Assembly (NCBI GenBank): GCA_965231765.1
Contig: OZ246887.1
Coordinates: 5,203,823-5,267,822, forward strand
Origin: Candidatus Binatia bacterium
Lineage (GTDB): Bacteria > Desulfobacterota > Binatia > Bin18
Reading direction: 5' to 3'
DNA: 64,000 nucleotides
Position numbers and translations under genes: made by a program. Positions 5,025 through 49,348 of this stretch are shown piece by piece (position 1 is the stretch's first letter; every line of letters begins with the position of its first letter). The notes under the pieces were generated by a model that worked only from the letters and a program-made list of their open reading frames with translations, was not told where the DNA came from and ran no database searches.

Positions 5025-5027
5025 GGT

Positions 5028-22343: not shown

Positions 22344-22391
22344 GACCGAGGACTACCTGAGTTGCTGAGTTGCTGAATCTACTGGTGATAC

Positions 22392-24116: not shown

Positions 24117-24131
24117 TGAGAACGTTTCCCA

Positions 24132-26660: not shown

Positions 26661-26686
26661 CATGAAATTTTTGAGCTGACAACTGA

Positions 26687-27559
26687 GTGACTATGGAACT
26701 CTCACGCGAGCGACTCATTTTGTATACTGGGGCAGGATTTCTGGGTGGGCTGGCCGGTTGGGCAGCCGCAGACCCATTGGCAAGTCTCGGCAATGTCTAC
26801 GTTCGGGCTCTTGCCCTGGGAGCTGTCATCGGGGTGTTTATTGGTGCGTTTATTGCCTCTATTGAGGGGCTCAGTCGCGGCCACAAAAACCAGATCATGC
26901 AGGGTCTGCAACTCGGTGGGCTAGCTGGTTTGATTGGTGGTGGGACTGGGCTGTTGATGGGCGAACTGGTGTTTGGCCTATTCGGAGGACTGGGCGGCCG
27001 GATTATTGGCTGGGGCATATTTGGTTTGATTGCCGGACTGGGCGTTGGCTGGGTTGGCCGTTCGGTTGCCCGGATGCGGAATGGCATGATTGGTGGAGCA
27101 ATCGGCGGAGCGACTGGTGGAGCACTGTACCAGATTGTGACAGGCTTATTACCTCAGACCGCAGGGCGTGGCCTTGCGCTTGCGCTGCTCGGGGCGATGA
27201 TTGGTTTGTGGATTGGCCTGGTCGGAGAAATCCTCAAGCGAGGCTGGTTTATGGTCATTCGTTCCCAGAGCCGGAATGCCAGAGAAGGCAAAGAATATCC
27301 ACTGGTGAAGGCCAAAACCACGATCGGTCGGGCTGAGGAGAGTGATGTCGGGCTGTTCGGGGATCGCTCAATCTCGGATATGCACGCCGTTGTTGAGCGT
27401 CAGAAAGGGAAATTCCTGCTGGCTCGTGGGCAAGGCATAGTCAAGGTCAATCAGTCGTCAGTGACCCAGCCGGTCCAGCTCAAGAATGGAGACCGAGTTG
27501 AGGTCGGGGGAACACTCCTCCTGTTTCGTGATCGCGCGGCTGTCCCTGAAGAGGCATAA
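26687..27559 (+). CDS. polytopic glycine-zipper membrane protein with C-terminal FHA domain
   Basis: Four or five Gly-rich TM segments (GxxxG repeats). The C-terminal FHA reads TIGRAEESDVGLFGDRSISDMHAVV...NGDRVEVGGTLLLF. Confidence 0.7.
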   Translation: MTMELSRERLILYTGAGFLGGLAGWAAADPLASLGNVYVRALALGAVIGVFIGAFIASIEGLSRGHKNQIMQGLQLGGLAGLIGGGTGLLMGELVFGLFGGLGGRIIGWGIFGLIAGLGVGWVGRSVARMRNGMIGGAIGGATGGALYQIVTGLLPQTAGRGLALALLGAMIGLWIGLVGEILKRGWFMVIRSQSRNAREGKEYPLVKAKTTIGRAEESDVGLFGDRSISDMHAVVERQKGKFLLARGQGIVKVNQSSVTQPVQLKNGDRVEVGGTLLLFRDRAAVPEEA

Positions 27560-27605
27560 GAAGCATACGGGACCGAGACGTCAACACACAGAAAAGTGAA
27601 GCTGT

Positions 27606-29168
27606 ATGGGAAAGCATAACTATTTTTATCAATATTGCATTGCCAGTCTCTCGTTTGTCGCGTGCGTGGCCGTCCAGACGTTGGCCTGGGCGGTAGACAC
27701 TGCGGTGGTGTCCCTGACCAATCCACAGCTGGAGACTTTTTCAAATGGCGGTGCAGTTGGCTTGTATTTTAGTGTGACCGACACCCGCGGACAGCCCGTC
27801 GGACAGCTCAGCCTAGACCAGGTGCAAATTCTCGAAGACGGCCAGATAGCAAAAGTCATTGATTTCCGAGGTGAAGAACAGGGACGACCGGTCGATATCG
27901 TGGTTGTCTTTGATATCACCGAGAGTATGGGACCCTTTATCGACGGCATGAAAGAGGCGACAAATGCCTTTGCCGATGGGCTATCGAAAGCCAACCGCGA
28001 TTATCGTTTGGGCCTGGTGACCTTTGAGGATTATGTCACTCGTGATGAGAAGGTGTTTACCCGGAGCGCGACAGAATTCAAAAGCTGGATTGGAGCCTTG
28101 CAGGCAGTTGGCGGCGGGGACATTCCAGAGAACTCGCTCGACGCGTTGATGATCGCCAGCCGTTTTCCTTTTCGGCCAGATGCCCAGGCCGTCGTCATCC
28201 TCATCACCGATGCGCCCAATCATTCTAAAGGGGATGGCTCGGAGAAGAATAATCCGTATGGACATGAGATTAGCCAGGTTTCCGCAGGCGAAGTGGTAGA
28301 GGAACTGAAACGGGCGAATCTGAGCGTGTTTGCAATCACCCCGCCTCCGTTTGTGGCACCCGACCTGCACAGAATGGCCAAAGAAACCGGAGGCAAGCAC
28401 TACAATATTGTGAGTGAAGGCCGCCGTTTTCCTGAGCTGATCGGCAAAATTGGCCGCTCGCTGGCATCGCAGTATTTCCTGACGTATGAGAGCCCACGGC
28501 CGGTCGAAGATGGGACCAGACGGGAAGTCGTACTCAAAATCAGCCATCCAAACGGTGCCGGTGAGGTACGCAGTAAGTACCAGCTGCGCGGAATTGGCGG
28601 CGGTGCCCGAGCTGTCGTGTCGAGCTCTGTTGCTGGCGTTGCTCCAGCTGAAAATATGCTCACCTACAGCTGGTGGAATATGCTTGTGCCGCTCTTGTCC
28701 GGAGCGGGACTCCTCCTGTTGGCGCGGGTGCGGCTGAGTGAACTACCGGCTGATGTCATGAGACGTCTCAAAACAGCTTCGAGCGCAGTCAGTGCTGCTG
28801 CCGGTACAGCCGCCAGCGCGGCTGCCGGCACCGTGGCTGCCGTTAAACCAGATAAACCTGCCGCCTATGCCCGCTTAATCCGTCAAACGCCACTTGACGA
28901 GGTACCGCGCGAGATTGCCTTAACCCGCGAGGAGTTTGTGATTGGGCGTGGTGAAGAGTGTGATATCGTCATTCCCCACACCTCAATTTCGCGTGAGCAT
29001 GCGCGTTTAAAAAAGCTCAAACCTGGCTTTGTGTTGTTTGACCTGAAGAGCAGAAACGGAACCTTTGTGAATGGCCGGAAAGTGGTTGAGAACCTGCTCA
29101 AAGAAGGCATGACGGTCAAGATTGGCGATATTGAGTTTGTCTTTTATGGGGCGAACCCATCGGCCTAA
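27606..29168 (+). CDS. signal peptide / vWA domain / TM / cytoplasmic FHA domain protein
   Basis: Signal peptide. vWA MIDAS VVFDITESM. TM helix WWNMLVPLLSGAGLLLLARV. C-terminal FHA FVIGRGEECDIVIPHTSISREHARL...NGTFVNG. Confidence 0.75.
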   Translation: MGKHNYFYQYCIASLSFVACVAVQTLAWAVDTAVVSLTNPQLETFSNGGAVGLYFSVTDTRGQPVGQLSLDQVQILEDGQIAKVIDFRGEEQGRPVDIVVVFDITESMGPFIDGMKEATNAFADGLSKANRDYRLGLVTFEDYVTRDEKVFTRSATEFKSWIGALQAVGGGDIPENSLDALMIASRFPFRPDAQAVVILITDAPNHSKGDGSEKNNPYGHEISQVSAGEVVEELKRANLSVFAITPPPFVAPDLHRMAKETGGKHYNIVSEGRRFPELIGKIGRSLASQYFLTYESPRPVEDGTRREVVLKISHPNGAGEVRSKYQLRGIGGGARAVVSSSVAGVAPAENMLTYSWWNMLVPLLSGAGLLLLARVRLSELPADVMRRLKTASSAVSAAAGTAASAAAGTVAAVKPDKPAAYARLIRQTPLDEVPREIALTREEFVIGRGEECDIVIPHTSISREHARLKKLKPGFVLFDLKSRNGTFVNGRKVVENLLKEGMTVKIGDIEFVFYGANPSA

Positions 29169-29200
29169 AAGGACACAATGAGCCCCCTTGGCGTCTTTTT

Positions 29201-32349: not shown

Positions 32350-32506
32350 AATCCCACGATATGACATAGCTGATCGGGCTCAGGCGTGCGTAATAGTACC
32401 CACCTTAATGTGAGCGAGACAGGGTGTCAAACCGGGTTTTTGGGGTTTCTTGGCTTGGGCTTGCCAGCAGTCATTACTTCCAGATAATATCCGACACGAT
32501 GCTAGT

Positions 32507-32591
32507 GCCGGGGTGGTGGAATTGGCAGACACACAGGACTTAAAATCCTGTGAGCTTTTTGCTCGTACGGGTTCAAGTCCCGTCCCCGGCA
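32507..32591 (+). tRNA. tRNA-Leu (anticodon UAA), type II with long variable arm
   Basis: Acceptor stem GCCGGGG/CCCCGGC with discriminator A. Anticodon stem CAGGA/TCCTG with loop CUUAAAA. Long variable arm GAGCTTTTTGCTC. T-arm GGGTTCAAGTCCC. Length 85 nt. Confidence 0.8.
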
Positions 32592-32986
32592 TAAGAAAAT
32601 TAACTACTTATGCCCCCTCTCAGCTGCGGAGGCGCGCGAAATTCCGGTCAAGGACACGATCCGAGTGTCGGCTGCACCCGGGACAGCGGAACGGCGCTGG
32701 GCGACCGCGACTTGGACACCACATGCTGCACGCTGAGGCAAACTCTGTGTGGCTCCGGGCCCGGACCGGGTTAGCGGACAGGCTCAAGCGCCAGGCCGAG
32801 GACTTTGCGTTTCATCTGCTGGTTGACTTGGAGGAAGCCCGGGCCGAGGGCCTGACCGACGTGGCTGTGATCGCGGAGCGCTATGGCGTCCCGCGTGAGA
32901 TGGTGCTGCTGGGGCGGGTGGCGTGAGAGAGAACACTCATACCCCACTTCACGCAGGAGCACGGATTACATAACGAGGAACCCTTA

Positions 32987-33850
32987 ATGGTAGACCGTAA
33001 AGCCGATACCGAGCCTCCGCAATTCACGAGGGCTGGCATCGAAAGAGGCATCACCAAGTTAAACCGTCGCATTAAAGACCTGAAAGGTCTCGATCCGAGC
33101 GAAGTCCATCAGTACGCTCCCTCAGTTCAAGTCGTCGAGTCGAACATCCGCGCAGCTATTCATGATGTATTTGGCAAGAATTCCCTGGAGTCTAAGCTGA
33201 AAGGGCTTTCTCTAATACTGTCGCCCGACGGATACAACAATAAGAAAAGTGACGCTGAGCGCCGAGAGGAGTCCTCCAAAATACTCGATCGCGCAGTCAC
33301 GATACTGGAGGGACATATCTTGCGTCTTAAAGAGAAACGCGAAGACCTGGAAGCAGATCAGGGGACTGAGCAGTCGGGTACACTTTCTTCGGACAAGTCA
33401 TCTACGAACAGCCGCCGAGTCTTCGTGGTCCACGGGCGGGACGTGGCAGCGAAGGAGGAAGTTCGCAGGCTTCTAACTCAGTTGAAGCTTGAGCCCGTGA
33501 TCCTTGGTGAACAGCCAGACCAGGGTCAGACGGTCATTGAGAAGTTCGAGGGGAACGCGGACGTGGGCTTCGCGGTGGTCCTTTTGACGCCCGACGACAA
33601 GGGTGGACTGGCTGACTCATCTAATGAGCCTCAGCGACGAGCGCGCCAGAATGTGATCTTCGAACTCGGTTTCTTCGTTGGCAAGCTCGGCAGAAAGAAG
33701 GTCTGCACCCTGTACAAGGGCAATGTCGAGATCATGAGCGATTATCAGGGTGTCATATATGTTCCCATGGATGATGAGGGCTGGCGATTGAATCTCGCAC
33801 AGGAGATTAAGAGCGCTGGCATCAATGTGGATCTGAATCACCTATGCTAG
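32987..33850 (+). CDS. coiled-coil + TIR-like (PF10137-type, predicted nucleotide-binding TIR-like) domain protein; candidate defence effector
   Basis: The C-terminal ~140 aa ([64 protein letters not shown]...[28 protein letters not shown]) match, from memory, the conserved TIR-like family motif set ([35 protein letters not shown]). The N-terminal ~150 aa are charged, helical and coiled-coil-like. Confidence 0.6.
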
Positions 33851-33934
33851 CGCGGTGTTTCATGTCGGCAAGGATGATCGGGTGCTCGGCCTTGTGGCTG
33901 GGCCGCTGACGGTGGGTAAGGAGAACGCATCACC

Positions 33935-34684
33935 ATGAGATCTCGGCTTTGGCTTTCCATTTGTGTCGCCTTAGTGTGGGCCTGGGTGGCGCCACAGCCA
34001 GCAGCGGCGCAAGATGCTGAGGTCGCGGACTGCCTCAAGACCGATCTGGCGCCCGCAGCGAAGGTCGCCGCGTGCCGAGCCGCCGCGGAAAACGGAGACG
34101 CGGATGCGCAGCTCAGGCTCGGTGTCATGTACGACAACGGCCAGGGCGTGGCGCAGGACTATGCGGAGGCGATGACGTGGTTCCGCCGGGCCGCTGCGCA
34201 GGGAAATGCAGGTGCGCAGGTCGCTCTCGGCGTCATGTACGCCGGCGGTCAGGGCGTGCCACAGGACTATGCGGAGGCGATGACATGGTATCGCCGGGCG
34301 GCTGCGCAGGGAAATGCAGGTGCGCAGGTCAATCTTGGCGTCATGTACAGTAAGGGCCGGGGCGTGGCGCAGGACCATGCGGAGGCGCTGGTGTGGTATC
34401 GCCGGGCGGCTGCGCAGGACTATGGGCTTGCGCAGTACAATCTCGGCGTCATGTACAGTAAGGGCCGGGGCGTGGCGCAGGATTATACGCTGGCCCATAT
34501 GTGGTTCAATCTCGCCAGCGCAAGTGGCTACAAGGATGCGTCTGAGGCCCGCAATGAGATGGCAAAGCGCATGACCCTGGCCCAGATCGCTGAAGCCCAA
34601 CGGTTGGCGCGGGAGTGGACGCAGGCATATACGGTAGGGGGGCAAGTAGTGCCAGCCGGGCCAGGCACGGCTGAACGATTTTAG
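33935..34684 (+). CDS. Sel1-like repeat (SLR) protein, secreted
   Basis: Signal peptide. Five tandem Sel1 repeats (LGVMYxxGxGVxQDYAEAMTWYRRAAAQGNAGAQ). Confidence 0.8.
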   Translation: MRSRLWLSICVALVWAWVAPQPAAAQDAEVADCLKTDLAPAAKVAACRAAAENGDADAQLRLGVMYDNGQGVAQDYAEAMTWFRRAAAQGNAGAQVALGVMYAGGQGVPQDYAEAMTWYRRAAAQGNAGAQVNLGVMYSKGRGVAQDHAEALVWYRRAAAQDYGLAQYNLGVMYSKGRGVAQDYTLAHMWFNLASASGYKDASEARNEMAKRMTLAQIAEAQRLAREWTQAYTVGGQVVPAGPGTAERF

Positions 34685-34895
34685 GGAAAAGGACAGACCG
34701 GCCGACGATTCTTCAGTGCGGAGCTTGGGGGTGGGGCCGAACGGCTGCCAAGTCGCCTTCAAAAAGCGCAGCCGTCATTGCACCTCAATAATCACAAAAT
34801 TCTGGCTTGCCTCTTGCCACTCGACCGTCACTGTTGTGTCCGGCTCGGGGAAGTCAGGCAGATTGTACACGCCACTCGCACCTGTCAGACGAACT
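34671..34895. repeat. direct repeat copy A (~97% identical to 41870-42095)
   Basis: A ~225-bp block is almost identical to copy B, with about six mismatches. Weaker homology extends a further ~100 bp upstream into the Sel1 gene 3' end. Confidence 0.7.
34780..34895 (-). pseudogene. remnant 3' end of an LRR/PPC surface-protein gene (paralog of 41981..44773)
   Basis: The reverse strand encodes ...LTGASGVYNLPDFPEPDTTVTVEWQEASQNFVIIEVQ*, identical to the last 37 aa of the 930-aa LRR protein. It has no upstream coding continuation. Confidence 0.6.
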
Positions 34896-34899
34896 GCTG

Positions 34900-37824
34900 C
34901 ATGAGCTTTCGCAGCACAGTCTTCAGATTCAGAGCCGCTATTTCCCCGAGGACAGCGAGTTATGGGTTGACCGCCAACTTGACCGGAACCTGGAAGAGGC
35001 TGTCGGCCGGGACGTCGTTTTTGTCGTTGCCGAGTCGGGTCTCGGCAAAAGCATAGCGTGTCACAAACGCCTGACGGCGCATGTTGAGATGGGAGGGTTT
35101 GGGCTGGTCATTCCGCATCAAATCATTGCTGACTCCCTGTCACTTGAGCAAGCGGTCGGTACGACGCTACGACAGCTCCATCCTTCTCTTGCCTCCGACG
35201 CGGGGAGCGAGGCGCGCGCGCTGGCGTCGGAACGCAAACCATTGTTGATGGTCGTGGAGGATATCAACAAATTTGGACAGCCAATCTCGCTCATCGAACG
35301 GCTGGCGAGCTGGAGCGCGCAGCGGGCAGAACGCAATCAGGTGGCCAGCTGGCAGATTCTTTGTCCGGTTTGGCCTCGGATACTCACAGCGCTTGGTGAT
35401 CAAGCCCGCAAGAAGATCAATGAGTTAGTGCTCACGGCATCTTCCTTCACACCAGAGGAAGGCGCTGCTGCCGTAAACCGCCGTCGCCACCAGGCAGGGA
35501 TTCCAATAACGCAGCTCGACGCAGAAGCGGTGGCGTCGGCTCTGGGTTACGATCCCTTTCTTATCGCCCTACAAGACCTTACGGCAACGCCAGACCCCAA
35601 CCATGTCATTCAAGCCTTTATCAAAGGCAGTCTCGAACGGCTCGCCGAAAGTCGCGGCGAGTTTACAGCGGGGGAATATCGAGAGGGATTGAGGCATCTC
35701 GCTGCCACAATGCTTGAACGGCGACGCCTTGATCTTTCTATGACTGACGTTGCCGCCTAGTTTGAAGACACACCCAGCACCGTAAACATGCTCCGGCATA
35801 TCGTCCGTTTCGGTGAGATCATTCGCGTTACTGGATCTGCCTCGAACGAGCGCTTGGCATTTCGCCATGACCGCGTTCTTGACTGGCTTCTTGCCGATGC
35901 GGCGGCAGACCTCATGCGCCATGGTGCCATCCCCCAGACCGTGCTGACGGAACCGTATTTTGCAGAAATCATCGGTGCTGCACTGGTCCGTGATGCCATC
36001 CCACTTGCAACGGTTGAACAGGTAAGAGTCACTAATCCCCTCGCGCTGTTCTGCGCAATGTCCGTGTTCGGCGAGCCGTGATCTGCACTGTGCCGTCCTC
36101 AAAGCTGCCGAGGCGTGGCTGGACGACGAGACAACACACACACCACACCACGAGAATCTTCGTTGGGCCGCGCGCCGTGTTCTCTCGGAATGTGATGCGT
36201 CCTATGTCATTTCGCTCGTCAAGCGCTTTCGTGAAGAACGAAACGATCGGTGGGGGCTACGCGCCCGTTTCCGCAATGGAGATTTTGGGGCGGGCCTCGT
36301 ACTTTGCAGTCTGTACCAGCCTGGGTTCGGCGTAGTCGGGCATGTGGAATTAATCGATCATGTTCAGCGGCGCCGAGGCAGAGCGCTTGTTCGCACGCTC
36401 AATGCTTTTCTGCGTCACGATCAACTCCCAGCTGCCGGCAGGTCTGGCGCTCTGAGGCTAGCCGGCTACCTCGCTGACCCGACGCTAGCCAGCGCAATTA
36501 AAACGTCCTGGTTGGCCGATACCGGCCGGGATGAGAGGCTCACGGATTATTTATGGGCTAGCGCGCAATGCGGTGGCGAGGATGCAGCCGGACTGTTGGC
36601 ACCGGTCTGCGATAAGTGGGCCGCGCTGCCCGATAAAGCAGACAGAGAGCATTCAGTCTCCTCCCGTAATAATCTCGCAGCGCATGAAATTCGATGGGCG
36701 TTTCGGGACAGAGTCCCTGAGTCGGCAATCCACTACTTCATCGAACAGGCAAAAACATCTGCATTGCGATGGCCGATCACCTTTATGCTGCACGGTATTG
36801 ATCACCCTGACGCGGTTGAGTTTGTTACTCGAGAACTCGCTGCAACTGAAAACTTTTCGCCGTTCGCGATGAACGCAGAAGATGAATGGAAGCGGCAGCA
36901 AGAAAAAACGGGCCGTGCGATGTCGGACGCTTCACGGAACCGGCTGCGTGAATTATGGACGAACAAACAGAATGGAAAACATCTGAGGAATTGGGCTACT
37001 GGTGGCAGGTAGGGCGGTATATCTGGTCGGATGAGCTGACTGAAAGTCTTGATGAGGCGCTAGGCCGGCGGAGCGACCGGGTGGAACGAGCTTGGGACTT
37101 CAATAATGAGATCTCGGCTGACTGTATTCTATCCGAGCGCCTGGTGGAGCTTCCAACGCCGACCGTGGAAGGATTACTGATCAAGCACTGGGATCATTTG
37201 CGTTTTTCATTTTACTATGTGCAAGCGGCTCTTTACACCGTGACTCCCCGACTCATGGAGATGGTCGCGCAAACGGTTGCCAGATGCCCGAACCCCAAAT
37301 CTATGTTTGAGCTCGCAACCAGGCATTTTGGAATCAGGACTAAAGAGCGAACGGGGATCGTGCGCATTGCGCAGCTTCAAGCCCTGTTGCCTTACCTTGA
37401 TCATCTTAGCGATCTGGATGTCCTAAACCTTTGGGAGACGTGCAACGATCATGGCTGGTTTGAATGGCGCCGTCAGCACCTCGATTCGCGTTTAAGGATT
37501 GGCAGGGCAAAAATATATGAAAATGACAACCGAGCAATGGCAGATCTTGACGACATGTTTCCCAAAGGGCTCTGGACTAATCATTGGGCTGACGAGTTTC
37601 TCAAAACCGGTATCTCCGTTGATCACATGATGGAAGTTGTACAGAACTGGTTGAGCCGACAAACAGACATTAGGGCTCTAACGATGGCAGCAGCCATTGT
37701 CGCCCATGCTGGTCAGCGTCGCCATATAAGTATCTTGTCCAGCCATAATATTGAGGCGACAGATCAGACTGGGCCCATCATTGAAGATACGCTTTTTGCG
37801 CTGAAACGGCGGTCTCCAAATTAG
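34900..37824 (+). pseudogene. frameshift-fragmented large P-loop NTPase (STAND/AAA-like) with helical-repeat C-terminal region
   Basis: Consecutive same-strand ORFs (34807-35760, 35788-36081, 36078-36335, 36344-37012, 36955-37824) run frame 1, then 1, 3, 2, 1 with overlaps. The first carries Walker A VVAESGLGKS and Walker B LLMVVEDINKF. The later pieces are alpha-helical. This is consistent with one ~950-aa gene broken by frameshifts. Confidence 0.4.
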
Positions 37825-38263
37825 GAGCAGCCCCCATGGCAGAAACACCCCTCCCTGAACTTCAGCCGGCTTCCGATAACCCATGGTACAGACTCGCTAC
37901 CGCTGGAGAAGATCACACGGACAACATGCGCCGTTGGAATGGCTACATGCGCCATCTGGTTGGGGAGGAGGAGGCGGCCAATTTGAAGCGGGACGATGGA
38001 AAGAATTGCTTCCCGGCAGATCGGCAGAGGCTTCGAGATCGGTGTTTTCAACGGACGCGGTGTACATTGGCGCGGAATGGACGACGGTGGCACCCAGGAA
38101 CGCGACCTTGTCCAAAGTACCGAGGCTGGGCAAAGCTGCGCGCCTTTGACTATCCCTTATGTCAGCAGTGTCCTTGAAAGCCTCGCGGCCAGCTATGACC
38201 GCGAGGCGAAGAGGGCAGATGACAGAGTGGAAATCAGAAAGAGGCTGGGACGTCGAACAAAAC

Positions 38264-38683
38264 TCATGCTCTTCCCCGACCTTTCAGCCCGTGTGGGGCG
38301 AGGATCGGCACGGAAAACACCAGAGCCAGGGTCAGCAGGTCCTCGTCACCCGTCACCAGGGCATCAGCCTGGCCCACCAGCGCCAGTTCGAGAAAAGGAC
38401 GGTCGAACGGGTCACGACACGCCGGGACGGCCGACGGTTCCGACACGCTGACCGTCTCGCACCAGGGCAGATAGTCGGCCAACAGATCTTCTCGCTCATC
38501 GTCGGTTAGCTGGAACTTGGCGTAGGACAGCACCCGAATCAATTCCGCCGTCGTCTCGCGGCTGGCCAGCGGCACAACGGCTCGCGCCTGCCACGCGTCG
38601 CGCAGCCAAGACACCGTTCCTGACGGGAACAGCAAGGCCGACACCAGGACATTGGTATCGAGCACCAACCGCCGAAAACTCAT
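38264..38683 (-). CDS. vapC: PIN-domain (VapC-type) toxin
   Basis: LVLDTNVLVSALL (first acidic residue), then a conserved ...TGDEDLL... acidic cluster. The start overlaps the antitoxin stop (ATGA). Confidence 0.7.
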   Translation of the reverse strand: MSFRRLVLDTNVLVSALLFPSGTVSWLRDAWQARAVVPLASRETTAELIRVLSYAKFQLTDDEREDLLADYLPWCETVSVSEPSAVPACRDPFDRPFLELALVGQADALVTGDEDLLTLALVFSVPILAPHGLKGRGRA

Positions 38684-38904
38684 TGAGCCTGGCGTGCCCA
38701 CGCCACGGCTTCTGCCACGTCCGTTTCGGACAAGCCCAGCTCGGCCAGTTTCGCCCGCACGGCATTAGCTCGGGTGAGCCGCACAGGGGTCAGCACGAGC
38801 CGCCCATTTTCGTGGGTGACATCGAAGTACTCTGTCCCCTGGAAGGCGGACACCAGCGCTTTCGGCAGGGTGAGTTGGTTCTTGGAAGTCAGTTTGGCAA
38901 GCAT
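38680..38904 (-). CDS. vapB: AbrB/MazE/SpoVT-family antitoxin
   Basis: 74 aa with a swapped-hairpin motif (LTSKNQLTLPKALV). It lies immediately upstream of the PIN gene and overlaps it. Confidence 0.65.
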   Translation of the reverse strand: MLAKLTSKNQLTLPKALVSAFQGTEYFDVTHENGRLVLTPVRLTRANAVRAKLAELGLSETDVAEAVAWARQAQ

Positions 38905-39210
38905 GGAGACATCTTCCTTATTCTGTTGTAAGGAAACAAGGATAAAGAAGATCCTTTCTCAGGGCAAGAGGAGGGACGACCGTCGCCTCACTTGATCCGA
39001 CCGTCGTTTTTGCTGTCTTTTGTCACTGGAGGGATCTCACTCGGCCCAGCCTGGTGGACGAACTGAGGGCGGGAGCAGGGCAGACTTGGTTTCTGCTCTC
39101 TGCGGCCGCTCCCTTAATCATCGGTTCCCTCTTGATGAATAGTATACATATAACTAAACTTTTTCTATCTGTGCCAAGGAGAAGGGAAAGGAGGGGAGGG
39201 GAGGATGCTT

Positions 39211-39590
39211 TGACGCAAATTGTCGCTGAGGGAAAATGGGGAAGGGTCGAGTGGGCGACAGACCGAAACGGGAATATGCCCGCGCGGTCTTATTATTCGG
39301 ACCTTCCTGATAGCGACAAAGCAAAAATCCTCGCTCTTTTCAACTTTTTGCGATTTCTTCAAAACCGGGAGAAACTCAAAAAACTAGGCAGTAAGGCAAA
39401 AGGGAAAGACTCAGAATTGTGGGAATTCAAGAGCTTTCAACATCGTTTTCTCGGTGATTATAGGCCACACAGCCGCTTTATTATCGCGCGTGCGCTTCAG
39501 AAAAAAAGCGATAACTTGCCAACATCTGATATTGCACGAGCCATTCGTATTCTCCCAGAAAACGACCAGCGAGAGGAAGGAATGCCATGA
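39211..39590 (+). CDS. higB: HigB/RelE-superfamily (Gp49-like) toxin
   Basis: ...GKDSELWEFKSFQHRFLGDYRPHSRFIIARALQKK... resembles the Gp49/HigB family. The ORF opens at 39054; the start is placed at TTG 39211 after GGAGGGGAGGGGAGG, and is uncertain. The stop overlaps the downstream HTH gene (ATGA). Confidence 0.5.
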
Positions 39591-39940
39591 ATCGCCCCTC
39601 CACGGACTATGAACTTTTTGAGCAATCCTCAGATCACAACAGACGGCTTCTGCGAGAGGAAGAGTTGATCCTGGAGGTGACAGAAGCGGTCAGCGCGGTG
39701 ATGCAGGAAGAAGGCATCTCTAAAGCCCGGCTCGCAAAGCGCCTGGGGAAAACCAAAGGATTCATTTCCCAGCTCTTGTCGGGCGGACGGAATCTGACCC
39801 TGCGGACGCTCGCTGGCCTTGTTGATGCGTTGGGATATCGGGTCACCATTACGGTTTCCAAGAATCGTGATAGCAGGTCTGTCGGCAGCGAGTCTCCTGA
39901 CCTCAGAGTCATCAATATCGAATCTTGGTCTTCCCCCTAG
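39587..39940 (+). CDS. higA: HTH (XRE/HigA-like) antitoxin with short C-terminal extension
   Basis: HTH reads ISKARLAKRLGKTKGFISQLLSGGRNLTLRTLAGLVDALG, and a ~25-aa tail follows. Its position after the toxin matches a HigBA-type reversed TA arrangement. Confidence 0.6.
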   Translation: MNRPSTDYELFEQSSDHNRRLLREEELILEVTEAVSAVMQEEGISKARLAKRLGKTKGFISQLLSGGRNLTLRTLAGLVDALGYRVTITVSKNRDSRSVGSESPDLRVINIESWSSP

Positions 39941-40017
39941 ACCCAGCCGCCGGTTTGGAGGGAACCCACTGTCAGTATTCCTCTCCAAACCTCAGTTAGT
40001 GACTATGGAGCAGCAGC

Positions 40018-40494
40018 ATGAGCAAGGCAGCTGATGGCCTGAAACGATTGATTGCGGAGGTCGAGATTGAAGGGGTGCGCCTCGTTGAAGCAAACGCGGA
40101 AACGAAGGTGCGGTCGCCGGAAGACACTGGCGCTGTTGATCTCTTGGTCAATCGAACGGCCGGGATTAGCGAGCGTCAAGAAAACGGGATGTTTTTTGTT
40201 GTGGCAACCATCAGGGCTCAACTTGTCTCTGAAGAGGCGAAGGAGGAGCCTCTGGTCTCGATCGAGACGAGTTTTGAACTCCAGTATCGCCTCCCTGAAG
40301 GATTGCGCGTCGATCCTCAAGCTCTGACAACCTTTGCCGAGACGAACGGGATCTATAATGCCTGGCCCTATTGGCGTGAGTTTGTGCAAAGCACGTTGGC
40401 CCGGATGGGACTCCCGCCAGTCGTGCTCCCGTTGTTACGCGCTCGGGAGGTGAAGGAGAAGACAGAAGCCGAGAAGGCAGAGGGGGTGGTATGA
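40018..40494 (+). CDS. SecB-like chaperone (TAC-system-type)
   Basis: 158 aa. Blocks align to E. coli SecB: VEANAET vs FEAPNAP, FFVVATIRAQLVSEE vs YEVVLRVTVTASLGEE, and AWPYWREFVQSTLARMGLPPVVLPLL vs [26 protein letters not shown]. Confidence 0.55.
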   Translation: MSKAADGLKRLIAEVEIEGVRLVEANAETKVRSPEDTGAVDLLVNRTAGISERQENGMFFVVATIRAQLVSEEAKEEPLVSIETSFELQYRLPEGLRVDPQALTTFAETNGIYNAWPYWREFVQSTLARMGLPPVVLPLLRAREVKEKTEAEKAEGVV

Positions 40495-41306
40495 AGTCAG
40501 ACCTCATTAGCAAAGCGACCCGGAACGCGTTTCGAGAAACTCTTGTGAATTACTCTCTTCGTCAGATAGACACGATTTTTGATGGGGCAGGACTGAGTCC
40601 CAAATTGGATCACAATCCGAGCGTACCAGGCCAACGGCGCACCTTGGTCGAGCAGTATTACGCTGGTATCGACTTTCGCTCTCCGAGCGATATCGACCAA
40701 CTCCTCTCTGCTTACGGAGAGCTAGTATTGCAAATGGGAGGCTCCGACGAACCGCTCTGCAGAGATCTTCTGCAACGCATGGAACAGGATGGGTACTCCT
40801 ATCAAGCAGGGAGCTTCATTCAGCTGCCAAACAGACAACAACCTCTCGTCGCCACTATCCAGTCTTACGCGGTCGCTCTTGATCTCGAAGGACTGCAAAG
40901 CCAAATCCATCGTCTTACTCAGGCTGCTGAAAATGATCCCCCTCTAGCCGTGGGAACAGCAAAGGAGATGGTGGAGACAATCTGCAAGACTATCCTTGAA
41001 AAAAGAGGTGTATCTACAGATGACAAAGAACTGCCAAAGCTTGTCCGTGCGACAGCTAAAGAACTCGCCCTACTGCCGGGGACTGTTCCCGACAATGCGA
41101 AAGGTTCAGAGGCCATTCGTCGGCTGCTCAGCAACTTGAACCAAGTCGCCCAGGGGATGGCGGAGCTCCGTAACCTCTATGGCACCGATCATGGTCGCGC
41201 TGGACGTGTCAAGGGTATACAGCCTCGACACGCTAGGCTCGCCGTCGGAGCGGCGACAACCCTGGCCACTTTCTTGCTGGAAACACATCTGGAGCGCAGT
41301 CCGTAG
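40491..41306 (+). CDS. HEPN-superfamily / Abi_C-like (abortive-infection C-terminal domain) protein
   Basis: The start overlaps the SecB-like stop (ATGA). The C-terminal ELRNLYGTDHGRAG carries an Rx4-6H HEPN motif in the position typical of Abi_C-family proteins. Confidence 0.55.
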   Translation: MKSDLISKATRNAFRETLVNYSLRQIDTIFDGAGLSPKLDHNPSVPGQRRTLVEQYYAGIDFRSPSDIDQLLSAYGELVLQMGGSDEPLCRDLLQRMEQDGYSYQAGSFIQLPNRQQPLVATIQSYAVALDLEGLQSQIHRLTQAAENDPPLAVGTAKEMVETICKTILEKRGVSTDDKELPKLVRATAKELALLPGTVPDNAKGSEAIRRLLSNLNQVAQGMAELRNLYGTDHGRAGRVKGIQPRHARLAVGAATTLATFLLETHLERSP

Positions 41307-41869
41307 GTGCCAGCCTCATGGTTCGCAGACAAGGACTCAAATGCATAACCGACGTGCTGGCCTGGATCAAAGCGCAGGGTGCCAGCTATCAGACCCGGAT
41401 GAACGCCGTGTTCCGGGCCTTCCAGGAAGCCACCAGATAATCGGGGGTCCGGAGATTCTCCTACACTGACGAGGGTAGACCCCTCACAGTCGAGCGAAGA
41501 GCCGGGGCAACAGAGACAAAAAAGGAGGAGGAAATCATACCCAGATGCAACATCTTATTGCGTCGTCTAGGAGACAGGTTTGGGCCGGTCTTCTCGGCTC
41601 GTTCTCCTCTGCTCTTGTCGTTGTTAAAATCCTCGGGTTTGGAAAGCAGGTTACAATAACCGGGAAAGTAGACTCCGTTGACCTGATATCTATTTATCTG
41701 AAGGAATGTGAATTGGTCGATGAGTAGATTTCGCGCAATCCTGCCGGCAGGCCACAGGCAAACGCCTCCCACTTCCAAGCTTGACACTTTGTCCCTTACC
41801 AGACGGAGCGGGTGGCGCGGCCTTATGTGGGCGGAGGAAAATCAGGGACTTACAGAGCCAGTCGAGCCC

Positions 41870-42095
41870 GGCGGGGCTGGACGATTTTAGAGAAAAGGAC
41901 AGATCGGCCGACGATTCTTCAGTGCGGAGCTTGGGGGTAGGGCCGAACGGCTGCCAAGTTGTCTTCAAAAAGCGCAGCCGTCATTGCACCTCAATAATCA
42001 CAAAATTCTGGCTTGCCTCTTGCCACTCGACCGTCACTGTTGTGTCCGGCTCGGGGAAGTCAGGCAGATCGTACACGCCACTCGCGCCCGTCAGA
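41870..42095. repeat. direct repeat copy B (partner of 34671-34895)
   Basis: Covers the last ~115 bp of the LRR gene plus ~110 bp of downstream sequence. Upstream of it (41700-41890) lies a degenerate remnant resembling the Sel1 gene C-terminus (...EPVEPGGAGRF* vs ...VVPAGPGTAERF*). Confidence 0.7.
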
Positions 42096-44773: not shown

Positions 44774-45104
44774 TTCCGCACACAGCGGTCAAGAACCGCA
44801 CCTCCGTCTGTGTCTCCACAAAGAAAACGGCGCCGCCCGCCCGACCCCACCCGTTCGCGCTCAGTCGGGCGCGAGGGAAGCCACACCGCCTAGTCCGTCC
44901 ATGGCACGAGACGACCCGCTGATCCCCGACGCGGCGACGTGGCAGAAATTGCAGCGGCGTCGAAGCCGGCCGCCTTTACTTCTCCCGCTCCACTCTCCTC
45001 CCTTTTTCCCTCTGTCCATCTTGTCTCTACATCGGGGAGGTAGTACAGGTGAGGGTAGGGTATGCATTGTGTGACACAACAATGCCACTCTGCAGGAAGA
45101 AACA

Positions 45105-45509
45105 GTGATGAAAACAGTTCAGAGTTTCGTGACGGCCGGGGCGCTAGTGGCTTGGGCGACCCTCTTCAACGTCGGAGCAGCGCCAGGAGAAGCTGCGGCT
45201 GTGCTGGAGGAAAGAGAGCTGGTGACCAGGCAGCAATGCCGCGTGGACGAGCATGCCCCTTTGCTGCTGGTCCACGGACGATCCCGTCATTCCTCCCCCC
45301 ATCCTCCCCCCTATTACCCGCTCCCGCCCTATCCTCCGCTTGTCTATCCCCCGTCTTCCCCCTACTATTCCCCGTACTCCGCTGCCGCCATCTGTCGCAA
45401 CCAACTCCGGTTCTGTCACCTGAAGGTCGCCATGCCAGTCGGCGCGCCGTGTGTTTGTGCTGCGCCGGTTGGCGGGGTGTGGTTCAGTGGTTGGGTGACG
45501 TTCTATTAG
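45105..45509 (+). CDS. small secreted Pro/Tyr-rich hypothetical protein
   Basis: Signal-peptide-like N-terminus (MMKTVQSFVTAGALVAWATLFNVGAAPGEA) followed by PHPPPYYPLPPYPPLVYPPSSPYYSPY. It lies in a gene-poor GC-rich stretch. Weak. Confidence 0.3.
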   Translation: MMKTVQSFVTAGALVAWATLFNVGAAPGEAAAVLEERELVTRQQCRVDEHAPLLLVHGRSRHSSPHPPPYYPLPPYPPLVYPPSSPYYSPYSAAAICRNQLRFCHLKVAMPVGAPCVCAAPVGGVWFSGWVTFY

Positions 45510-46176
45510 GCTGAAGCGATATTGAGGGGACCACAGAGCGCACAGCGGCGAGACCTGGTGCTCGCCCGGGGCGCGGCTCCCACCGCGGGGAGCGCGTTCG
45601 ACCTTCCAGAACAGCGTCCCATCCCTGATCCCCCACGCCCGGCCTCCATCCGATCCCTCGTCAACGTCCCCCGGTCCAGCACCGCTCCTGGGCCATATGA
45701 ATTCCTTATCCAAGGAAACGGGAAAGGCCGCCAGAGCTATATCCTACCCAGTATTGGGTCGTTTCCGCGGACCCAGGTTGTCTCCAAAAACGGGGGGTTG
45801 ATGAAATAGTGGAGAACTTTCTTCGGGCTAGGAATTCGTTCTAAAGACCCTCAAATTTCCCCTCCGCGGTCGCACCGCCCCTTCCCCAGGGGAGGACCCG
45901 GGAAGCCTGGCGGTGAGACAGACGACGGCTCTCAGGCCCCGTTCTCCTCGTGGCTCAGCTTGACACACTACAGACGTAAAACTGGCCCCTTTGCGGCCGA
46001 TTTGCCGGGGTTCCTGGCCGATCTGCGCGAATCGCGGGTCAACCGGCCGCAAAGGGGGGGGGCCTGGATGACCGGAGGCGGGCGGAACGGCGAATGGCGT
46101 GGCGATCCCTGCCAGACTTACGGGGTGCCCGCATGTATGCTAGGAGAGGGAGCGCATTGCTGTAAGGAGGTGTCGG

Positions 46177-47046
46177 ATGCGAAGCAAGCAGATCGTGTGT
46201 GGGCTGGTCGTAGTTGCCCTGATGGGCGGGGTCAGCTCGCGTGTGCGGGCCCAGGTCTTCCCGTGGTGGGCGTTTGACAGCGTCATTGAGGAGGTCCAGG
46301 ACCGGGGGACGTTGCGCGTCGGGCTCGGGCTATTCGAGCCCTGGTCGGCGTGTAATGCCGACGGCGAGCTGATCGGCTTTTGGGTCGATGTCGCGACAAA
46401 AGTGGCCGAGGACATGGGGGTGGAGGTGGAATTTGCGCGGACGAACTGGAACTACATCATCCCGTCGCTGATCGCCGAGGAGTTTGATCTCATCAGTGGG
46501 ATGACGATTCTTCCGGCCCGCGCCCTCAAGGTCAATTTCACGTCCTCGTACAACTCTACCGGACTCTACCTGGTGGCGAATGCGGCGCAAAGCGCCGGCC
46601 TGGCCACACTGGCCGATTTCAACAGTCCCAGCGTCACGATTGCGACCCGGCGGGGCGCCTCGTCCATCCCTGCTCTCGAGAATACCTTTCCCGCTGCCCT
46701 GCTCCTGCTCTTTGATACCGACAATGCGGTCCTCCAGGCCGTCGTCGCCGGGGAGGCGCATGCGGCGGCGGCATATTCAACGACGCGGCGGGACACGTGG
46801 GTGGACGCCCACCCGGAGACGTTGCACCTGCCCTTCGCGGAACCGTTTGCCGCGGGCGTGGAGGGGTTCGGCGTGCGCAAAGGGGACCTGGATACCTTAA
46901 ATTTTCTCAATGGCTGGATTGCGGTGCGCCAGGCCGATGGCTGGCTCGCCCAGCGCCGCCAATATTGGTGGGAGACTCACGAGTGGGCCGATCAGGTCGT
47001 GACCGATCCGGACACCGTGGCGGCGTGCGAGGACTCCTTTCAATAG
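46177..47046 (+). CDS. family-3 solute-binding protein (SBP_bac_3), orphan
   Basis: Signal peptide. TLRVGLG...PW...DGELIGFWVDVATKVAEDMGVEVEF...WNYIIPSL...FDLISGMTI matches polar amino-acid/MoxJ-type binding proteins. No permease or ATPase gene is nearby. Confidence 0.75.
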   Translation: MRSKQIVCGLVVVALMGGVSSRVRAQVFPWWAFDSVIEEVQDRGTLRVGLGLFEPWSACNADGELIGFWVDVATKVAEDMGVEVEFARTNWNYIIPSLIAEEFDLISGMTILPARALKVNFTSSYNSTGLYLVANAAQSAGLATLADFNSPSVTIATRRGASSIPALENTFPAALLLLFDTDNAVLQAVVAGEAHAAAAYSTTRRDTWVDAHPETLHLPFAEPFAAGVEGFGVRKGDLDTLNFLNGWIAVRQADGWLAQRRQYWWETHEWADQVVTDPDTVAACEDSFQ

Positions 47047-47301
47047 CCGGCTGCGGGGCAAGCTGCCCGGATAGGCAGCCCCCCCCGCGCTGAACATTCT
47101 TCGGCCAGGTCGCCGGCTTCCCTAAAATCCTTCAGCCGCGCCGCGCCAGCCTCGGCCCGTAACTCCCTGATATTCCTGCACTCACACACGGCCAGCTCGC
47201 TGCGTCCGATAAGGGGTGCAGGGTCAACTTCAGTCCAGCCGCTGGCCGCGCCGCCAGGCCCAGCAGGTTGTCTCGCAAAACAGGGGTTTTCTCGGGACGC
47301 C

Positions 47302-47703
47302 TCAGGCTCTGTTGGCACGCCGCCAGAAGCGGATGGCCGAGACGCCCGTGATAACGATCACCGCCGGGGCAAAGAGGTTCCAAATGGTGGCGCTGGCCTC
47401 AAAATGCTCCGAGAACTTGAGCACGTAGTTATGCAGGTAGACCAGGCCGACATACGCGGTGACCATGGTGAACAGCTCGACCGGCCGCTGGTGCCGCTCC
47501 GGCTCCACACCAAGAGTCTGGAGTGAATCACGAACGTTGAGGGTGACCACCAAGCCCAGGACAAGCAGCGTCAGCGGATCAACCACATAGTCCCAGATCG
47601 GCTGGACACCGGCCGGGTTGAGCGGGAAGTACGTGTTGCAGCAGAGGACGGCGACTGCGGTGATCCCACACAGGAGGGAGACGAGTCTGAAGAGGCTGGC
47701 CAT
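47302..47703 (-). CDS. hypothetical 4-TM membrane protein
   Basis: Hydrophobic segments run throughout. The start is taken at MASLFRLVSLL; the upstream Glu/Pro-rich ORF extension is unlikely to be coding. Confidence 0.45.
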   Translation of the reverse strand: MASLFRLVSLLCGITAVAVLCCNTYFPLNPAGVQPIWDYVVDPLTLLVLGLVVTLNVRDSLQTLGVEPERHQRPVELFTMVTAYVGLVYLHNYVLKFSEHFEASATIWNLFAPAVIVITGVSAIRFWRRANRA

Positions 47704-48010
47704 GGGAATCACTCCTCTCATAGACAATTGGGGGCTTGGGCTTGCCGGGGTGAAGGACGACGGCTCCTCTTCTCCTCCTGGCTCCTCTTCCCTCCTCACA
47801 CAACTGCTAACTCCCCCGCTTGCAAGCCCCGCTTTCCTGGGGTTTTTGGGGGTGGGTGGAGCGTGGCGAAAAAGCCCAACAAAATCACGCCGGAAACTTC
47901 ACATAATACAACTTTATCAGATGTAATCACGCGGGTCAGTCCGGGAGATCTTTGAGATACAGGAGATCCTCCGGCAGGTGCGCGCGGCCCCAATTTCGGG
48001 CGACCTGAAC

Positions 48011-49348
48011 CTACTCTGCTGGGAGATTCTTTGCCCGGCGCAGGTCGGCCCGGCGCAGGTCGGCCCCGCTCAGGTCGGCCCGGCGCAGGTCGGCCCCGCT
48101 CAGGTCGGCCCGGCGCAGGTCGGTCCCGCTCAGGTCGGCCCCGCTCAGGTTGGCCCGGCGCAGGTCGCCCCGGCGCAGGTCGGCCCCGCTCAGGTTGGCC
48201 CGGCGCAGGTCGCCCCCGCGCAGGTCGGCCCGGCGCAGGTCGGCCTGGCTCAGGTCGGCCCGGCTCAAGTCGGCCCCGCTCAGGGTGGCCTCGCTCAGGG
48301 TGGCCTCGCTCAGAGTGGCCTCGCTCAGGGTGGCCCCGCTCAGGGTGGCCCCGCTCAGGGTGGCCCCGCTCAGGTCGGCCCCGCTCAGGTCGGCCCGGCG
48401 CAGGTTGGCCCCGCTCAGGTCGGCCTGGCTCAGGGTGGCCCAGATCAGGTTGGCCCGGCGCAGGTTGGCCCCACTCAGGGTGGCCTGGCTCAGATTGGCC
48501 CCGCGCAGGGTGGCCTCGCGCAGGGTGGCCCCGCTCAGGTCGGCCCAGATCAGGTTGGCCTCGCTCAGGGTGGCCCCGCTCAGGTCGGCCTGGCTCAGGT
48601 CGGCCCCACTCAGGTTGGCCTGGCTCAGGTCGGCCCGACGCAGGGAGGCCTCGCGCAGTTTGGCCAGGTTCAGGTCGGCCCGGCGCAGGGAGGCCCCGCT
48701 CAGGTCGGCCCGGCGCAGGGTGGCCAGGATCAGGGTGGCCCGGTGCAGGGTGGCCAGGCTCAGGGTGGCCCCGCTCAGGTCGGCCCGGCGCAGGGTGGCC
48801 CCGCTCAGGTCGGCCCCGCTCAGGTCGGCCTCGGGTATGACGACCCCGGCCAAATGCGTGTTGCGTAAATCAAGACGATCATCGCGCCTGTTCGGGCCCG
48901 GTGTTGCCCGCCGGCCAATAACGGTCAGGATCGCTTGGATGTCGGGAGGCGGCTTTTGGGCGGCGTTTGGAGAGAAGTCCCCCTGTCTGGGCGCCCGCTC
49001 TCGGACGTAGGCCGTCAAGGCTTCCAGGATCAGGCCGTGGTCTTGCTCTGAATCTGTGGCCAGCTGGCCCAGGGCCTCAATCCCGCACAATCGGATTGCC
49101 AGGGTGGCATCTGCCAGTTGCGCAATCGCTTGGGGCACATCCGGCTTGTCGCGGCAGCCCGTTACTTGTGCACTCAGCAACGGGGGAACGCACCAGAAGA
49201 GAGCCACCACTACCGCGAGTAGGGAGATGCGCCAGCTGAGGCAGAATGTCTTCACATCAGAGAATGCCATGCTCACCATCATAGCCCGCCCGGGAGCGCC
49301 GCAAAAAAATAATTTCAAGGCGATTCCCCCTTCCTCAGTGAACGTCAA
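48011..49348 (-). CDS. pentapeptide-repeat protein with N-terminal membrane anchor and helical domain
   Basis: More than 50 consecutive A(D/N)LSx pentapeptides (ADLSGADLSGATLRRADLSGATLS...). The N-terminal region has a hydrophobic helix. The true start may be at MMVSMAFSD (49282). Confidence 0.75.
   Translation of the reverse strand: MTFTEEGGIALKLFFCGAPGRAMMVSMAFSDVKTFCLSWRISLLAVVVALFWCVPPLLSAQVTGCRDKPDVPQAIAQLADATLAIRLCGIEALGQLATDSEQDHGLILEALTAYVRERAPRQGDFSPNAAQKPPPDIQAILTVIGRRATPGPNRRDDRLDLRNTHLAGVVIPEADLSGADLSGATLRRADLSGATLSLATLHRATLILATLRRADLSGASLRRADLNLAKLREASLRRADLSQANLSGADLSQADLSGATLSEANLIWADLSGATLREATLRGANLSQATLSGANLRRANLIWATLSQADLSGANLRRADLSGADLSGATLSGATLSGATLSEATLSEATLSEATLSGADLSRADLSQADLRRADLRGGDLRRANLSGADLRRGDLRRANLSGADLSGTDLRRADLSGADLRRADLSGADLRRADLRRAKNLPAE
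48041..48830. repeat. 15-bp-periodic coding repeat (caggtcggccccgct / caggtcggcccggcg variants)
   Basis: The pentapeptide-repeat gene DNA is composed of ~50 tandem degenerate 15-mers. This creates long spurious ORFs in all frames on both strands. Confidence 0.7.

Follow-up and report, generated by a model that had tools for sequence, protein, structure and literature searches.

A tRNA-flanked defence hotspot in Candidatus Binatia, probably assembled from gene-sized cassettes without an integrase

A stretch of 64,000 nt from Candidatus Binatia bacterium (assembly GCA_965231765.1, contig OZ246887.1, positions 5,203,823 to 5,267,822), here called the window, contains a tRNA-Leu(UAA) gene followed by a dense series of defence and toxin-antitoxin (TA) genes. 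The region from position 32604 to ~49300 probably (at a rough probability of 0.7) represents a strain-variable, integrase-free hotspot, which was assembled from independent gene-sized cassettes. It ends at tRNA-Leu(UAA) on the left and at a dienelactone-hydrolase gene on the right. Its cassettes are a TIR gene of the PADLOC type PDC-S35, an Abi_2-HEPN gene with a large NTPase gene, a VapBC pair, a HigB-HigA-SecB-like toxin-antitoxin-chaperone (TAC) system, an Abi_C gene and the gene of a leucine-rich-repeat (LRR) surface protein, with others further right. The PDC-S35 TIR gene, VapBC, HigBA-SecB, Abi_C and the dead Abi_2 plus NTPase cassette are clustered within 8.7 kb. Judged by family membership, the hotspot cassettes would serve in defence, and the intact ones are each expected to act alone.

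The locus is a tRNA-flanked defence hotspot, a kind which is already known and newly seen in Binatia. Hotspots of this type without an identifiable mode of mobilisation have been described in Pseudomonas and Escherichia coli, and exchange via flanking homology has been proposed for core defence hotspots (PMC10250203; PMC10121019). Like the cDHS1/2 hotspots of P. aeruginosa and the tRNA-located hotspots of E. coli, the Binatia locus is a variable array in which defence and TA cassettes stand between conserved core genes, including a tRNA gene, with a content that varies among close strains and, as in some instances there, without identifiable mobilisation genes. Unlike these, it belongs to an uncultured lineage, was compared with one sister strain and includes cargo outside defence as well (Sel1, LRR, solute-binding and pentapeptide proteins). 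The findings leave current concepts unchanged. They provide a base-pair-resolved case, from the uncultured phylum Binatota, of turnover in a defence hotspot without a dedicated recombinase.

Comparison with a sister strain and with distant relatives

A sister-strain locus (L023/L027) on a 5.6-Mb contig was found through a relative of the Abi_C protein (P0241, 96% amino acid identity). In blastn alignments (Table 1) the flanks, i.e., the gene of a 343-aa protein (p343) with tRNA-Leu on one side and dienelactone hydrolase on the other, have 96.6-98.3% identity to L023, and the stretch between them differs by the replacement of three segments (one sister strain was compared, and the hotspot status refers to this close relative, not to a population). 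On the left, homology stops at 32603 and the two strains diverge from 12 nt past the tRNA; the next ~30 nt of the window resemble the tRNA flank of a distant relative (L003). Window positions 32604-34877 (2,274 nt) stand in place of L023 positions 1047-4213 (3,168 nt). In L023, a pentapeptide-repeat gene and a 141-aa gene precede the Abi_2-NTPase pair, and the ImmA/IrrE remnant (ImmA'), TIR and Sel1 genes of the window are absent from the locus. The block from VapBC to the LRR gene diverges from L023 like the core flanks, with 97.7-98.2% identity in the 7.2 kb between the two copies of a direct repeat described below. Since it is present in L023 with such core-like divergence, this part was already at the locus in the common ancestor.

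Past the LRR gene, homology to L023 resumes at the dienelactone-hydrolase gene, which places the right end of the variable region at ~49.3 kb instead of the ~42.1 kb assumed in the original prediction, an account of the region made from its sequence alone. In this right-hand part, window positions 45550-47927 (an SBP_bac_3 gene and a 165-aa ORF) correspond to a TetR gene and a Replicase-family gene (16639-17280) in L023. The LRR gene, which had been taken for an ordinary flank, has a GC content at third codon positions (GC3) far from that of the core genes (0.755 vs 0.568 ± 0.033). It is shared, alone and at 87-88% nucleotide identity, with two other loci (L013, L014), in which the flanks are unrelated and no empty site was seen. 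As it is an isolated cassette in these loci and strain variability continues past it, the LRR gene is cargo and not flank.

The left flank of the window is syntenic in 19 further loci from GTDB genomes and JGI metagenomes, with 59-74% amino acid identity in the neighbouring 343-aa protein. tRNA-Leu(UAA) adjoins the 343-aa gene in six of the 19, and one (L007) carries the tRNA ~1.6 kb away. To the right of the tRNA, no match to window positions 32.6-64 kb was found in any of the 19 loci; in six of them the tRNA is followed by well-conserved genes which are missing from the window. As nothing right of it matches, tRNA-Leu marks a synteny break. The 19 loci are too distant for an empty-site test, and a genome in which tRNA-Leu is directly followed by a convergent Sel1/LRR pair, for which the original prediction proposed to search, was not found among the relatives.

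The composition of the region is that of a mosaic. The 29 core genes of the window have a GC3 of 0.568 ± 0.033, and z-scores of hotspot genes against them reach +8.8 and -3; the TIR, NTPase, HigA, SecB-like and Abi_C genes lie near the core level. A conserved gene order with uniform composition, which would speak against an island, was thus not seen: synteny stops at tRNA-Leu in every relative found and the GC3 of the region differs from the core in the manner of a mosaic.

The recombination joint and the origin of the tRNA-proximal block

Two gene-end remnants had been noticed in the region. Both are real and are copies of one 242-nt direct repeat (repeat search and alignment), which lie 7,206 nt apart and are 94% identical, with an exact core of 107 nt. 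Each copy consists of the Sel1 3' end, a spacer and the 3' end of the LRR gene (last 37 codons, opposite strand). Copy A continues the intact Sel1 gene and breaks off at 34889, and copy B joins a decayed Sel1 tail to the intact LRR gene. Copy B is also present in L023; since its Sel1-tail part is identical there, copy B predates the split of the strains. At the end of copy A, a three-way comparison revealed a recombination joint, which reads ...CACTC-GCACCTGTCAGA-CGAACTGC... Left of the dodecamer GCACCTGTCAGA the sequence follows the LRR tail, right of it the NTPase gene. The dodecamer is matched at 12 of 12 positions in the NTPase gene of L012 and at 10 of 12 in the LRR tail (GCGCCCGTCAGA in copy B).

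The common ancestor with the sister strain would already have had the order tRNA-...-Abi_2-NTPase-VapBC-HigBA-SecB-Abi_C-(Sel1 tail)-LRR. In the window lineage, a block of 2.27 kb (ImmA remnant-TIR-Sel1-spacer-115-nt LRR tail) would then have replaced the tRNA-proximal 3.17 kb, which comprised the pentapeptide gene, the 141-aa gene, the gene of the Abi_2 HEPN protein and the initial ~203 codons of the NTPase. As an intact gene cannot descend from a truncated one, the joint of the window is the derived state. The most likely route appears to be homology-facilitated illegitimate recombination (HFIR), in which donor DNA would have been anchored by homologous recombination in the conserved p343/tRNA-Leu flank, with its other end being joined illegitimately at the 12-nt microhomology. 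The presumed donor would have carried tRNA-Leu-ImmA'-TIR-Sel1 convergent with an LRR gene. Such an event would have duplicated the Sel1-end/LRR-end segment, giving the 242-nt repeat, and would have killed the NTPase system, which then decayed. We infer both the direction and the mechanism of this replacement.

The anchor flank with 98.3% identity, the 12-nt joint and the replacement of 3,168 nt of recipient-type sequence by 2,274 nt are what HFIR would leave behind. The mismatch distribution did not reveal a crossover point in the left flank. HFIR itself is established, with known cases in transformation and conjugation (PMC3240628), and was proposed for sequential-displacement scars in Vibrio type VI secretion system (T6SS) clusters and Rhs loci (PMC5361080). 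Like the scars of effector-immunity displacement in the T6SS of V. cholerae, the Binatia locus combines a conserved anchor on one side with a non-homologous joint on the other (PMC5361080; PMC3240628), older genes are pushed downstream, and direct repeats of orphaned 3' gene ends remain. Unlike in these scars, the Binatia joint destroyed a resident defence gene rather than keeping an immunity gene.

Several points weigh against this reading of the locus. The microhomology with the resident LRR tail comprises only the mentioned 10 of 12 positions, and the spacers of copy A, copy B and the L023 copy are three distinct alleles, implying extra recombination outside the model. No genome with tRNA-ImmA'-TIR-Sel1 and a convergent full LRR gene, as presumed for the donor, was found; with one close relative and no donor genome, the direction and the choice between HFIR and deletion rest on parsimony. 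Furthermore, the defence role of every hotspot gene is predicted from family membership only, and the window as well as L023 are probably metagenome assemblies, so that single-base differences could include sequencing errors.

The same joint with the same 12-nt microhomology would also result without any import, if an older tandem array (tRNA-ImmA'-TIR-Sel1-LRR(copy 1)-...-Abi_2-NTPase-...-Sel1 tail-LRR(copy 2)) had lost the part between the tail of LRR copy 1 and NTPase codon ~203 by a spontaneous microhomology deletion. Other deletions of the microhomology type exist in the same NTPase pseudogene, and tRNA-associated islands often grow additively (PMC10250203). However, at least one extra event is needed here, as the 1.8 kb between tRNA and Abi_2 in L023 are different (pentapeptide and 141-aa genes) and bear no trace of TIR-Sel1, and no genome with the tandem array was found. 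This deletion is rated second to import by HFIR and appears unlikely. That the 242-nt direct repeats flank 7.2 kb could suggest that this block itself is the insert, brought in on a circular DNA with a Sel1-end/LRR-end copy by a single Campbell-type crossover, which could lie in the 107-nt exact core. Yet in L023 the whole 7.2-kb block is present with the intact NTPase gene and two additional genes upstream, and of the repeat only copy B is there. The block is no more diverged from L023 than the core is, and its left end interrupts a gene mid-way. It is thus hardly credible that the block between the repeats is a recent insert; the TIR-Sel1 block next to the tRNA is the newer part. That the assembly chimerically joined two co-occurring strains across the repeat seems just as far-fetched. 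The source is probably metagenome-assembled and 242-nt repeats can mislead assemblers, but the joint is located at the repeat edge, the 12 nt shared with the NTPase gene are too short for an assembler overlap, and four further private lesions downstream in this gene are consistent with a long-dead gene.

The original prediction considered the cluster as an accessory/defence island anchored at tRNA-Leu, with a mobilising element, if any, that was lost or is non-canonical. As a classical genomic island it would have entered attB in the tRNA 3' end via a tyrosine integrase that was lost later. As for the kind of region, this view stood: it is rich in defence and TA genes, adjoins the tRNA at which synteny stops, differs in content from L023 and has an atypical, mosaic composition. 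In addition, variability begins 12 nt past the tRNA, a truncated ImmA/IrrE gene, which is typical of mobile elements, abuts it, a Replicase-family gene is present in the same hotspot of the sister strain, and on plasmids of Burkholderia and Pseudomonas, full-length TIR homologues show translational coupling to a tyrosine recombinase. For integrase-type anchoring, however, no evidence was found. The terminal 18-25 nt of the tRNA, taken with or without flank, occur once in the window and once in L023/L027, and no second copy of the tRNA 3' end (18-25 nt, at most four mismatches) was found in either, hence also no partial copy (attR) near 42 kb, where a search for one had been proposed. Domain scans detected no integrase or transposase domain between the core flanks (32.5-49.3 kb), as had been said of the shorter interval, nor in the L023 locus. 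Moreover, the cargo is swapped cassette by cassette and not as one unit, and the new block is joined on its right at a microhomology within a gene, not at an att site. An integrase-borne island appears improbable, even more so than the tandem-array deletion. No motif common to the cassette boundaries was seen on inspection, and promoter/terminator and Rfam scans added nothing beyond the tRNA.

Defence and toxin-antitoxin cassettes of the hotspot

The TIR and Sel1 genes, the gene-end remnants, the fragmented NTPase gene, VapBC, HigBA-SecB and the HEPN gene are all present downstream of tRNA-Leu. The four ORF fragments between 34.8 and 37.8 kb represent one pseudogene with 97-98% nucleotide identity (34878-37830) to intact genes for proteins of 1,241-1,243 aa in L012 and L023. 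Its first ~203 codons and the upstream Abi_2-HEPN partner are gone; further lesions are a TGG>TAG change at 35758-35760 and deletions of 6 nt at 35563, 5 nt at 36078 and 166 nt at 36991. The joined conceptual translation matches more than 340 proteins of ~1,230 aa, none with a Pfam domain, and the closest is P0001 on contig L012. In L012, the NTPase gene is preceded by the gene of an Abi_2/AbiD-like HEPN protein of 239 aa (PF07751 7e-6, PADLOC PD-T4-5 7.5e-18) with overlapping stop and start codons, and both genes are intact in L023 (Abi_2 2887-3606; NTPase, 1,243 aa, 3606-7337). The cassette is 97.5% identical between L012 (6558-11086) and L023 (2809-7343) in otherwise unrelated surroundings, and the homology has sharp ends, 78 nt ahead of the first start codon and 6 nt past the last stop. 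A small serine recombinase adjoins it in L012.

The cassette is widespread, with relatives in numerous bacteria. Some of the more than 340 homologues of the large NTPase carry an N-terminal HNH domain, and distant relatives neighbour AbiEii, Lit and ImmA genes on plasmids of Sphingomonas, Aliarcobacter, Acinetobacter and haloarchaea. Tentatively, the 4.5-kb cassette of an Abi_2/AbiD-like HEPN protein and an AAA+-like NTPase might be an uncharacterised anti-phage system that moves between genomes as a discrete unit, with a fused HNH nuclease replacing the separate HEPN protein in some variants. This unassigned cassette is the most interesting by-product of the analysis and worth testing. The window and L023 also share a rearranged remnant (Table 1) related to a 168-aa gene of L012, which is found there 5 kb upstream of the NTPase cassette and in the opposite relative orientation.

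The NTPase had been described as STAND-like, a label which is not established. The intact protein has no match in Pfam, NCBIfam, PADLOC or PDB sequences and thus also none to a STAND family; the single weak family match is AAA_22 (0.009) on the N-terminal NTPase fragment of the window. The Walker A (GxGK) and Walker B (ED) residues are the same in all of 37 homologues. A confident AlphaFold model of the P-loop module (pLDDT 91) resembles AAA+ proteins of the ORC/Cdc6/DnaA type and PAB2304 at low TM-scores of 0.4-0.5, and the top 50 structural matches of this module include no NLR, Apaf-1 or Avs structure.

The PIN toxin and antitoxin genes have the gene arrangement of VapBC and are also present in L023. 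In the adjacent TAC system, the HigB, HTH_3 and SecB-like genes directly follow one another on the same strand, with the stop codon of HigB overlapping the HigA start, and the HigB start is probably the TTG at 39210, which follows a GGAGG ribosome-binding site. VapC and HigB would act as RNases restrained by their antitoxins. The sequence of the SecB-like protein is identical in window and L023. Its best PDB match, Rv1957 (5MTW), spans 68 residues, which is evidence at the sequence level only; the PADLOC profile matched, PD-T4-9_C, is that of the PD-T4-9/CmdTAC chaperone, and the Pfam SecB model gave no match.

In L023, HigA has 144 aa (L023:9097-9531) and its stop overlaps the SecB-like start codon. 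Its C-terminal ~55 aa, a putative chaperone-addiction (ChAD) element, are non-HTH and contain W113, W118, W124 and Y140, with ESWSS and SDYGA as polar-aromatic-small contexts that fit the loose ChAD motif known for HigBAC of E. coli. A nonsense change in the window drops the last 27 aa of HigA, including three of the four aromatics in the tail. Deletion of the ChAD makes HigA chaperone-independent (PMC5105189), and the window system may now behave as a plain HigBA pair with an orphaned chaperone. The higB gene of L023 has an extra T in a T-run, which is either a frameshift or a long-read sequencing error. The two sister strains seem to have disabled the same TAC in different ways, one by a truncated antitoxin tail and the other by a frameshifted toxin, or one of the differences is a sequencing error.

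Known HigBAC systems (M. tuberculosis Rv1955-1957 and E. coli NT1F31; PMC5105189; PMC6377645; bioRxiv 10.1101/2024.02.24.581848) share with this one the order toxin-antitoxin-chaperone, a HigB/Gp49-type toxin and an HTH antitoxin. Rv1957 is also the best solved relative of the SecB-like chaperone, and the L023 antitoxin has the tail with spaced aromatics and the stop over the chaperone start. They differ from it in that the HigA tail of the window is cut by 27 residues, the tail is shorter than the one of E. coli (~55 vs 96 aa), the Pfam SecB model is silent on the window chaperone and chaperone dependence is putative.

The Abi_C gene had been assigned to the HigBA-SecB module. A four-gene HigBA-SecB-Abi_C system was considered and rejected, as Abi_C homologues with 66-95% identity adjoin unrelated genes. 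In L024, Abi_C and the BrnA remnant (BrnA') are 95% identical to the window and stand beside an HNH_5 gene and a type I restriction-modification (R-M) system; in L025, an Abi_C gene with 89% identity stands beside a P63C gene; and L026 has a relative with 66% identity within a type I R-M/defence operon. No SecB-like or HigBA neighbour of Abi_C was found in any of these three non-sister loci. DNA homology to L024 begins exactly at the Abi_C start codon, and the BrnA remnant moves between genomes together with Abi_C. Given these unrelated contexts, the fact that the SecB-like stop overlaps the start of Abi_C by 4 nt is no evidence for a four-gene system and probably reflects a juxtaposition without functional link. 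By its domain, Abi_C would act as an abortive-infection protein of the HEPN RNase type. It shares with AbiJ/Abi_C HEPN proteins the C-terminal Abi_C HEPN domain and the occurrence of homologues as single genes inside other defence islands, and is unlike them in that its N-terminal ~180 aa have no family match. Scans of viral contigs with Abi_C and the SecB-like protein revealed no relatives.

In the block beside the tRNA, the ImmA/IrrE remnant has no start codon and its frame is open back into the tRNA. The TIR protein is, according to its profile matches, of the CAP12/Pycsar-effector (PycTIR) type and corresponds to the PADLOC candidate single-gene system PDC-S35. An assignment as Cap12 itself was rejected, with NCBIfam Cap12 equivalogs scoring far under the cut-off (43 vs 450 bits). 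Like the CAP12/PycTIR effectors of CBASS and Pycsar it belongs to the TIR Pfam family PF10137 and matches PDC-S35 over the full length; unlike these, its gene has no adjacent cyclase or other signal-generating partner. The protein would act as an NAD+-consuming effector. TIR/PDC-S35 homologues with 39-40% identity occur on small plasmids (L031, B. pseudomallei plasmid p1; L032, P. avellanae p5), each followed by a tyrosine recombinase with a 4-nt overlap, a pairing which is absent in Comamonadaceae pOS401. Exact-protein look-ups of the Sel1, TIR, Abi_C and PIN proteins of the window found no identical protein.

Coordinates and minor observations

Table 1. Features of the hotspot and blastn segments shared with the sister locus L023 (positions refer to the window unless stated otherwise)
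Feature	Position	Strand	GC3	Evidence and remarks
Segment matching L023 1-1046	31558-32603			98.3% (blastn); 343-aa gene, tRNA-Leu, 11 nt
tRNA-Leu(UAA)	32506..32592	+		ARAGORN, Rfam; conserved left anchor; only tRNA in window
ImmA/IrrE (Peptidase_M78) remnant, 5'-truncated	32612..32926	+	0.76	PF06114 1.1e-5, profile positions 50-118 of 123
TIR-domain protein, 287 aa	32987..33850	+		PF10137 4e-38; PADLOC PDC-S35 4e-78 over full profile length
Sel1-repeat protein	33935..34684	+	0.72	3e-38; N-terminal signal-like sequence
Repeat copy A	34648..34889	.		Sel1 3' end, spacer, 115-nt LRR tail (34775-34889, -)
Recombination joint	34878..34889	.		GCACCTGTCAGA, three-way comparison
P-loop (AAA+-like) NTPase pseudogene, ~1,240 aa originally	34878..37824	+		Nucleotide identity to intact genes
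Segment matching L023 4214-6343	34878-36996			98.2% (blastn); NTPase
Segment matching L023 6498-11132	36985-41622			97.7% (blastn); NTPase end to past Abi_C
Fragment homologous to upstream region and 5' end of 168-aa L012 gene	37988..38263	-		89% identical, 276 nt
VapC-type PIN_3 toxin	38264..38701	-	0.74	Pfam 1.3e-20; TIGR00305 5.6e-16
MazE/AbrB-like antitoxin, 74 aa	38680..38904	-	0.72	PF04014 1.4e-3, under curated cut-off; overlaps PIN gene
HigB-like (Gp49/RelE-fold) toxin	39210..39590	+	0.47	PF05973 2.9e-5
HigA HTH_3 antitoxin, 117 aa	39587..39940	+		TGG>TAG 39938-39940
SecB-like TAC chaperone, 158 aa	40018..40494	+		Best PDB match Rv1957 (5MTW) 1.1e-5; PADLOC PD-T4-9_C 5.4e-5
Abi_C/AbiJ-like HEPN protein	40491..41306	+		PF14355 4e-27; PADLOC AbiJ 4e-12
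BrnA-antitoxin C-terminal remnant	41351..41440	+		PF14384 1.4e-7; also in L024, L023
Segment matching L023 11499-14870	41623-45003			93.3% (blastn); repeat copy B, LRR
Repeat copy B	41854..42095	.		Decayed Sel1 3' tail (stop 41888-41890), spacer, intact LRR gene 3' end
LRR surface protein, 930 aa	41981..44773	-	0.755	93% identical to L023
Rest of variable region	44774..49302			Core homology back at 49303; blastn vs L023
SBP_bac_3 gene			0.80	
165-aa ORF			0.78	
Pentapeptide-repeat gene	48011-49348	-	0.86	445 aa
Segment matching L023 20084-20816	49303-50035			96.6% (blastn); dienelactone hydrolase

A further deletion inside the hotspot is located at 41622/41623, where 366 nt of L023 (11133-11498), within a 182-aa ORF of unknown function, are absent from the window. 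The pentapeptide-repeat gene of the window has many internal repeats, contains a 1-kb stretch with a GC content of 0.74 and is 85-88% identical to L023.

The C-terminal part of the LRR protein is a duplicated domain of about 2 x 155 aa (window 41981-42900, -; proteins P0121-P0240) that corresponds to no Pfam family. It is common to more than 900 proteins, with sulfatases, fn3, cadherin, FG-GAP, peptidases or LRR domains in their N-terminal parts, and looks like a lineage-specific module of secreted Binatia proteins.

To the left of a 699-aa gene, an FHA/VWA signalling block (window 20200-29200) is absent from five Binatia genomes (L001-L005) and present in L009, L011 and L018. It represents a second, older presence/absence difference near the hotspot.

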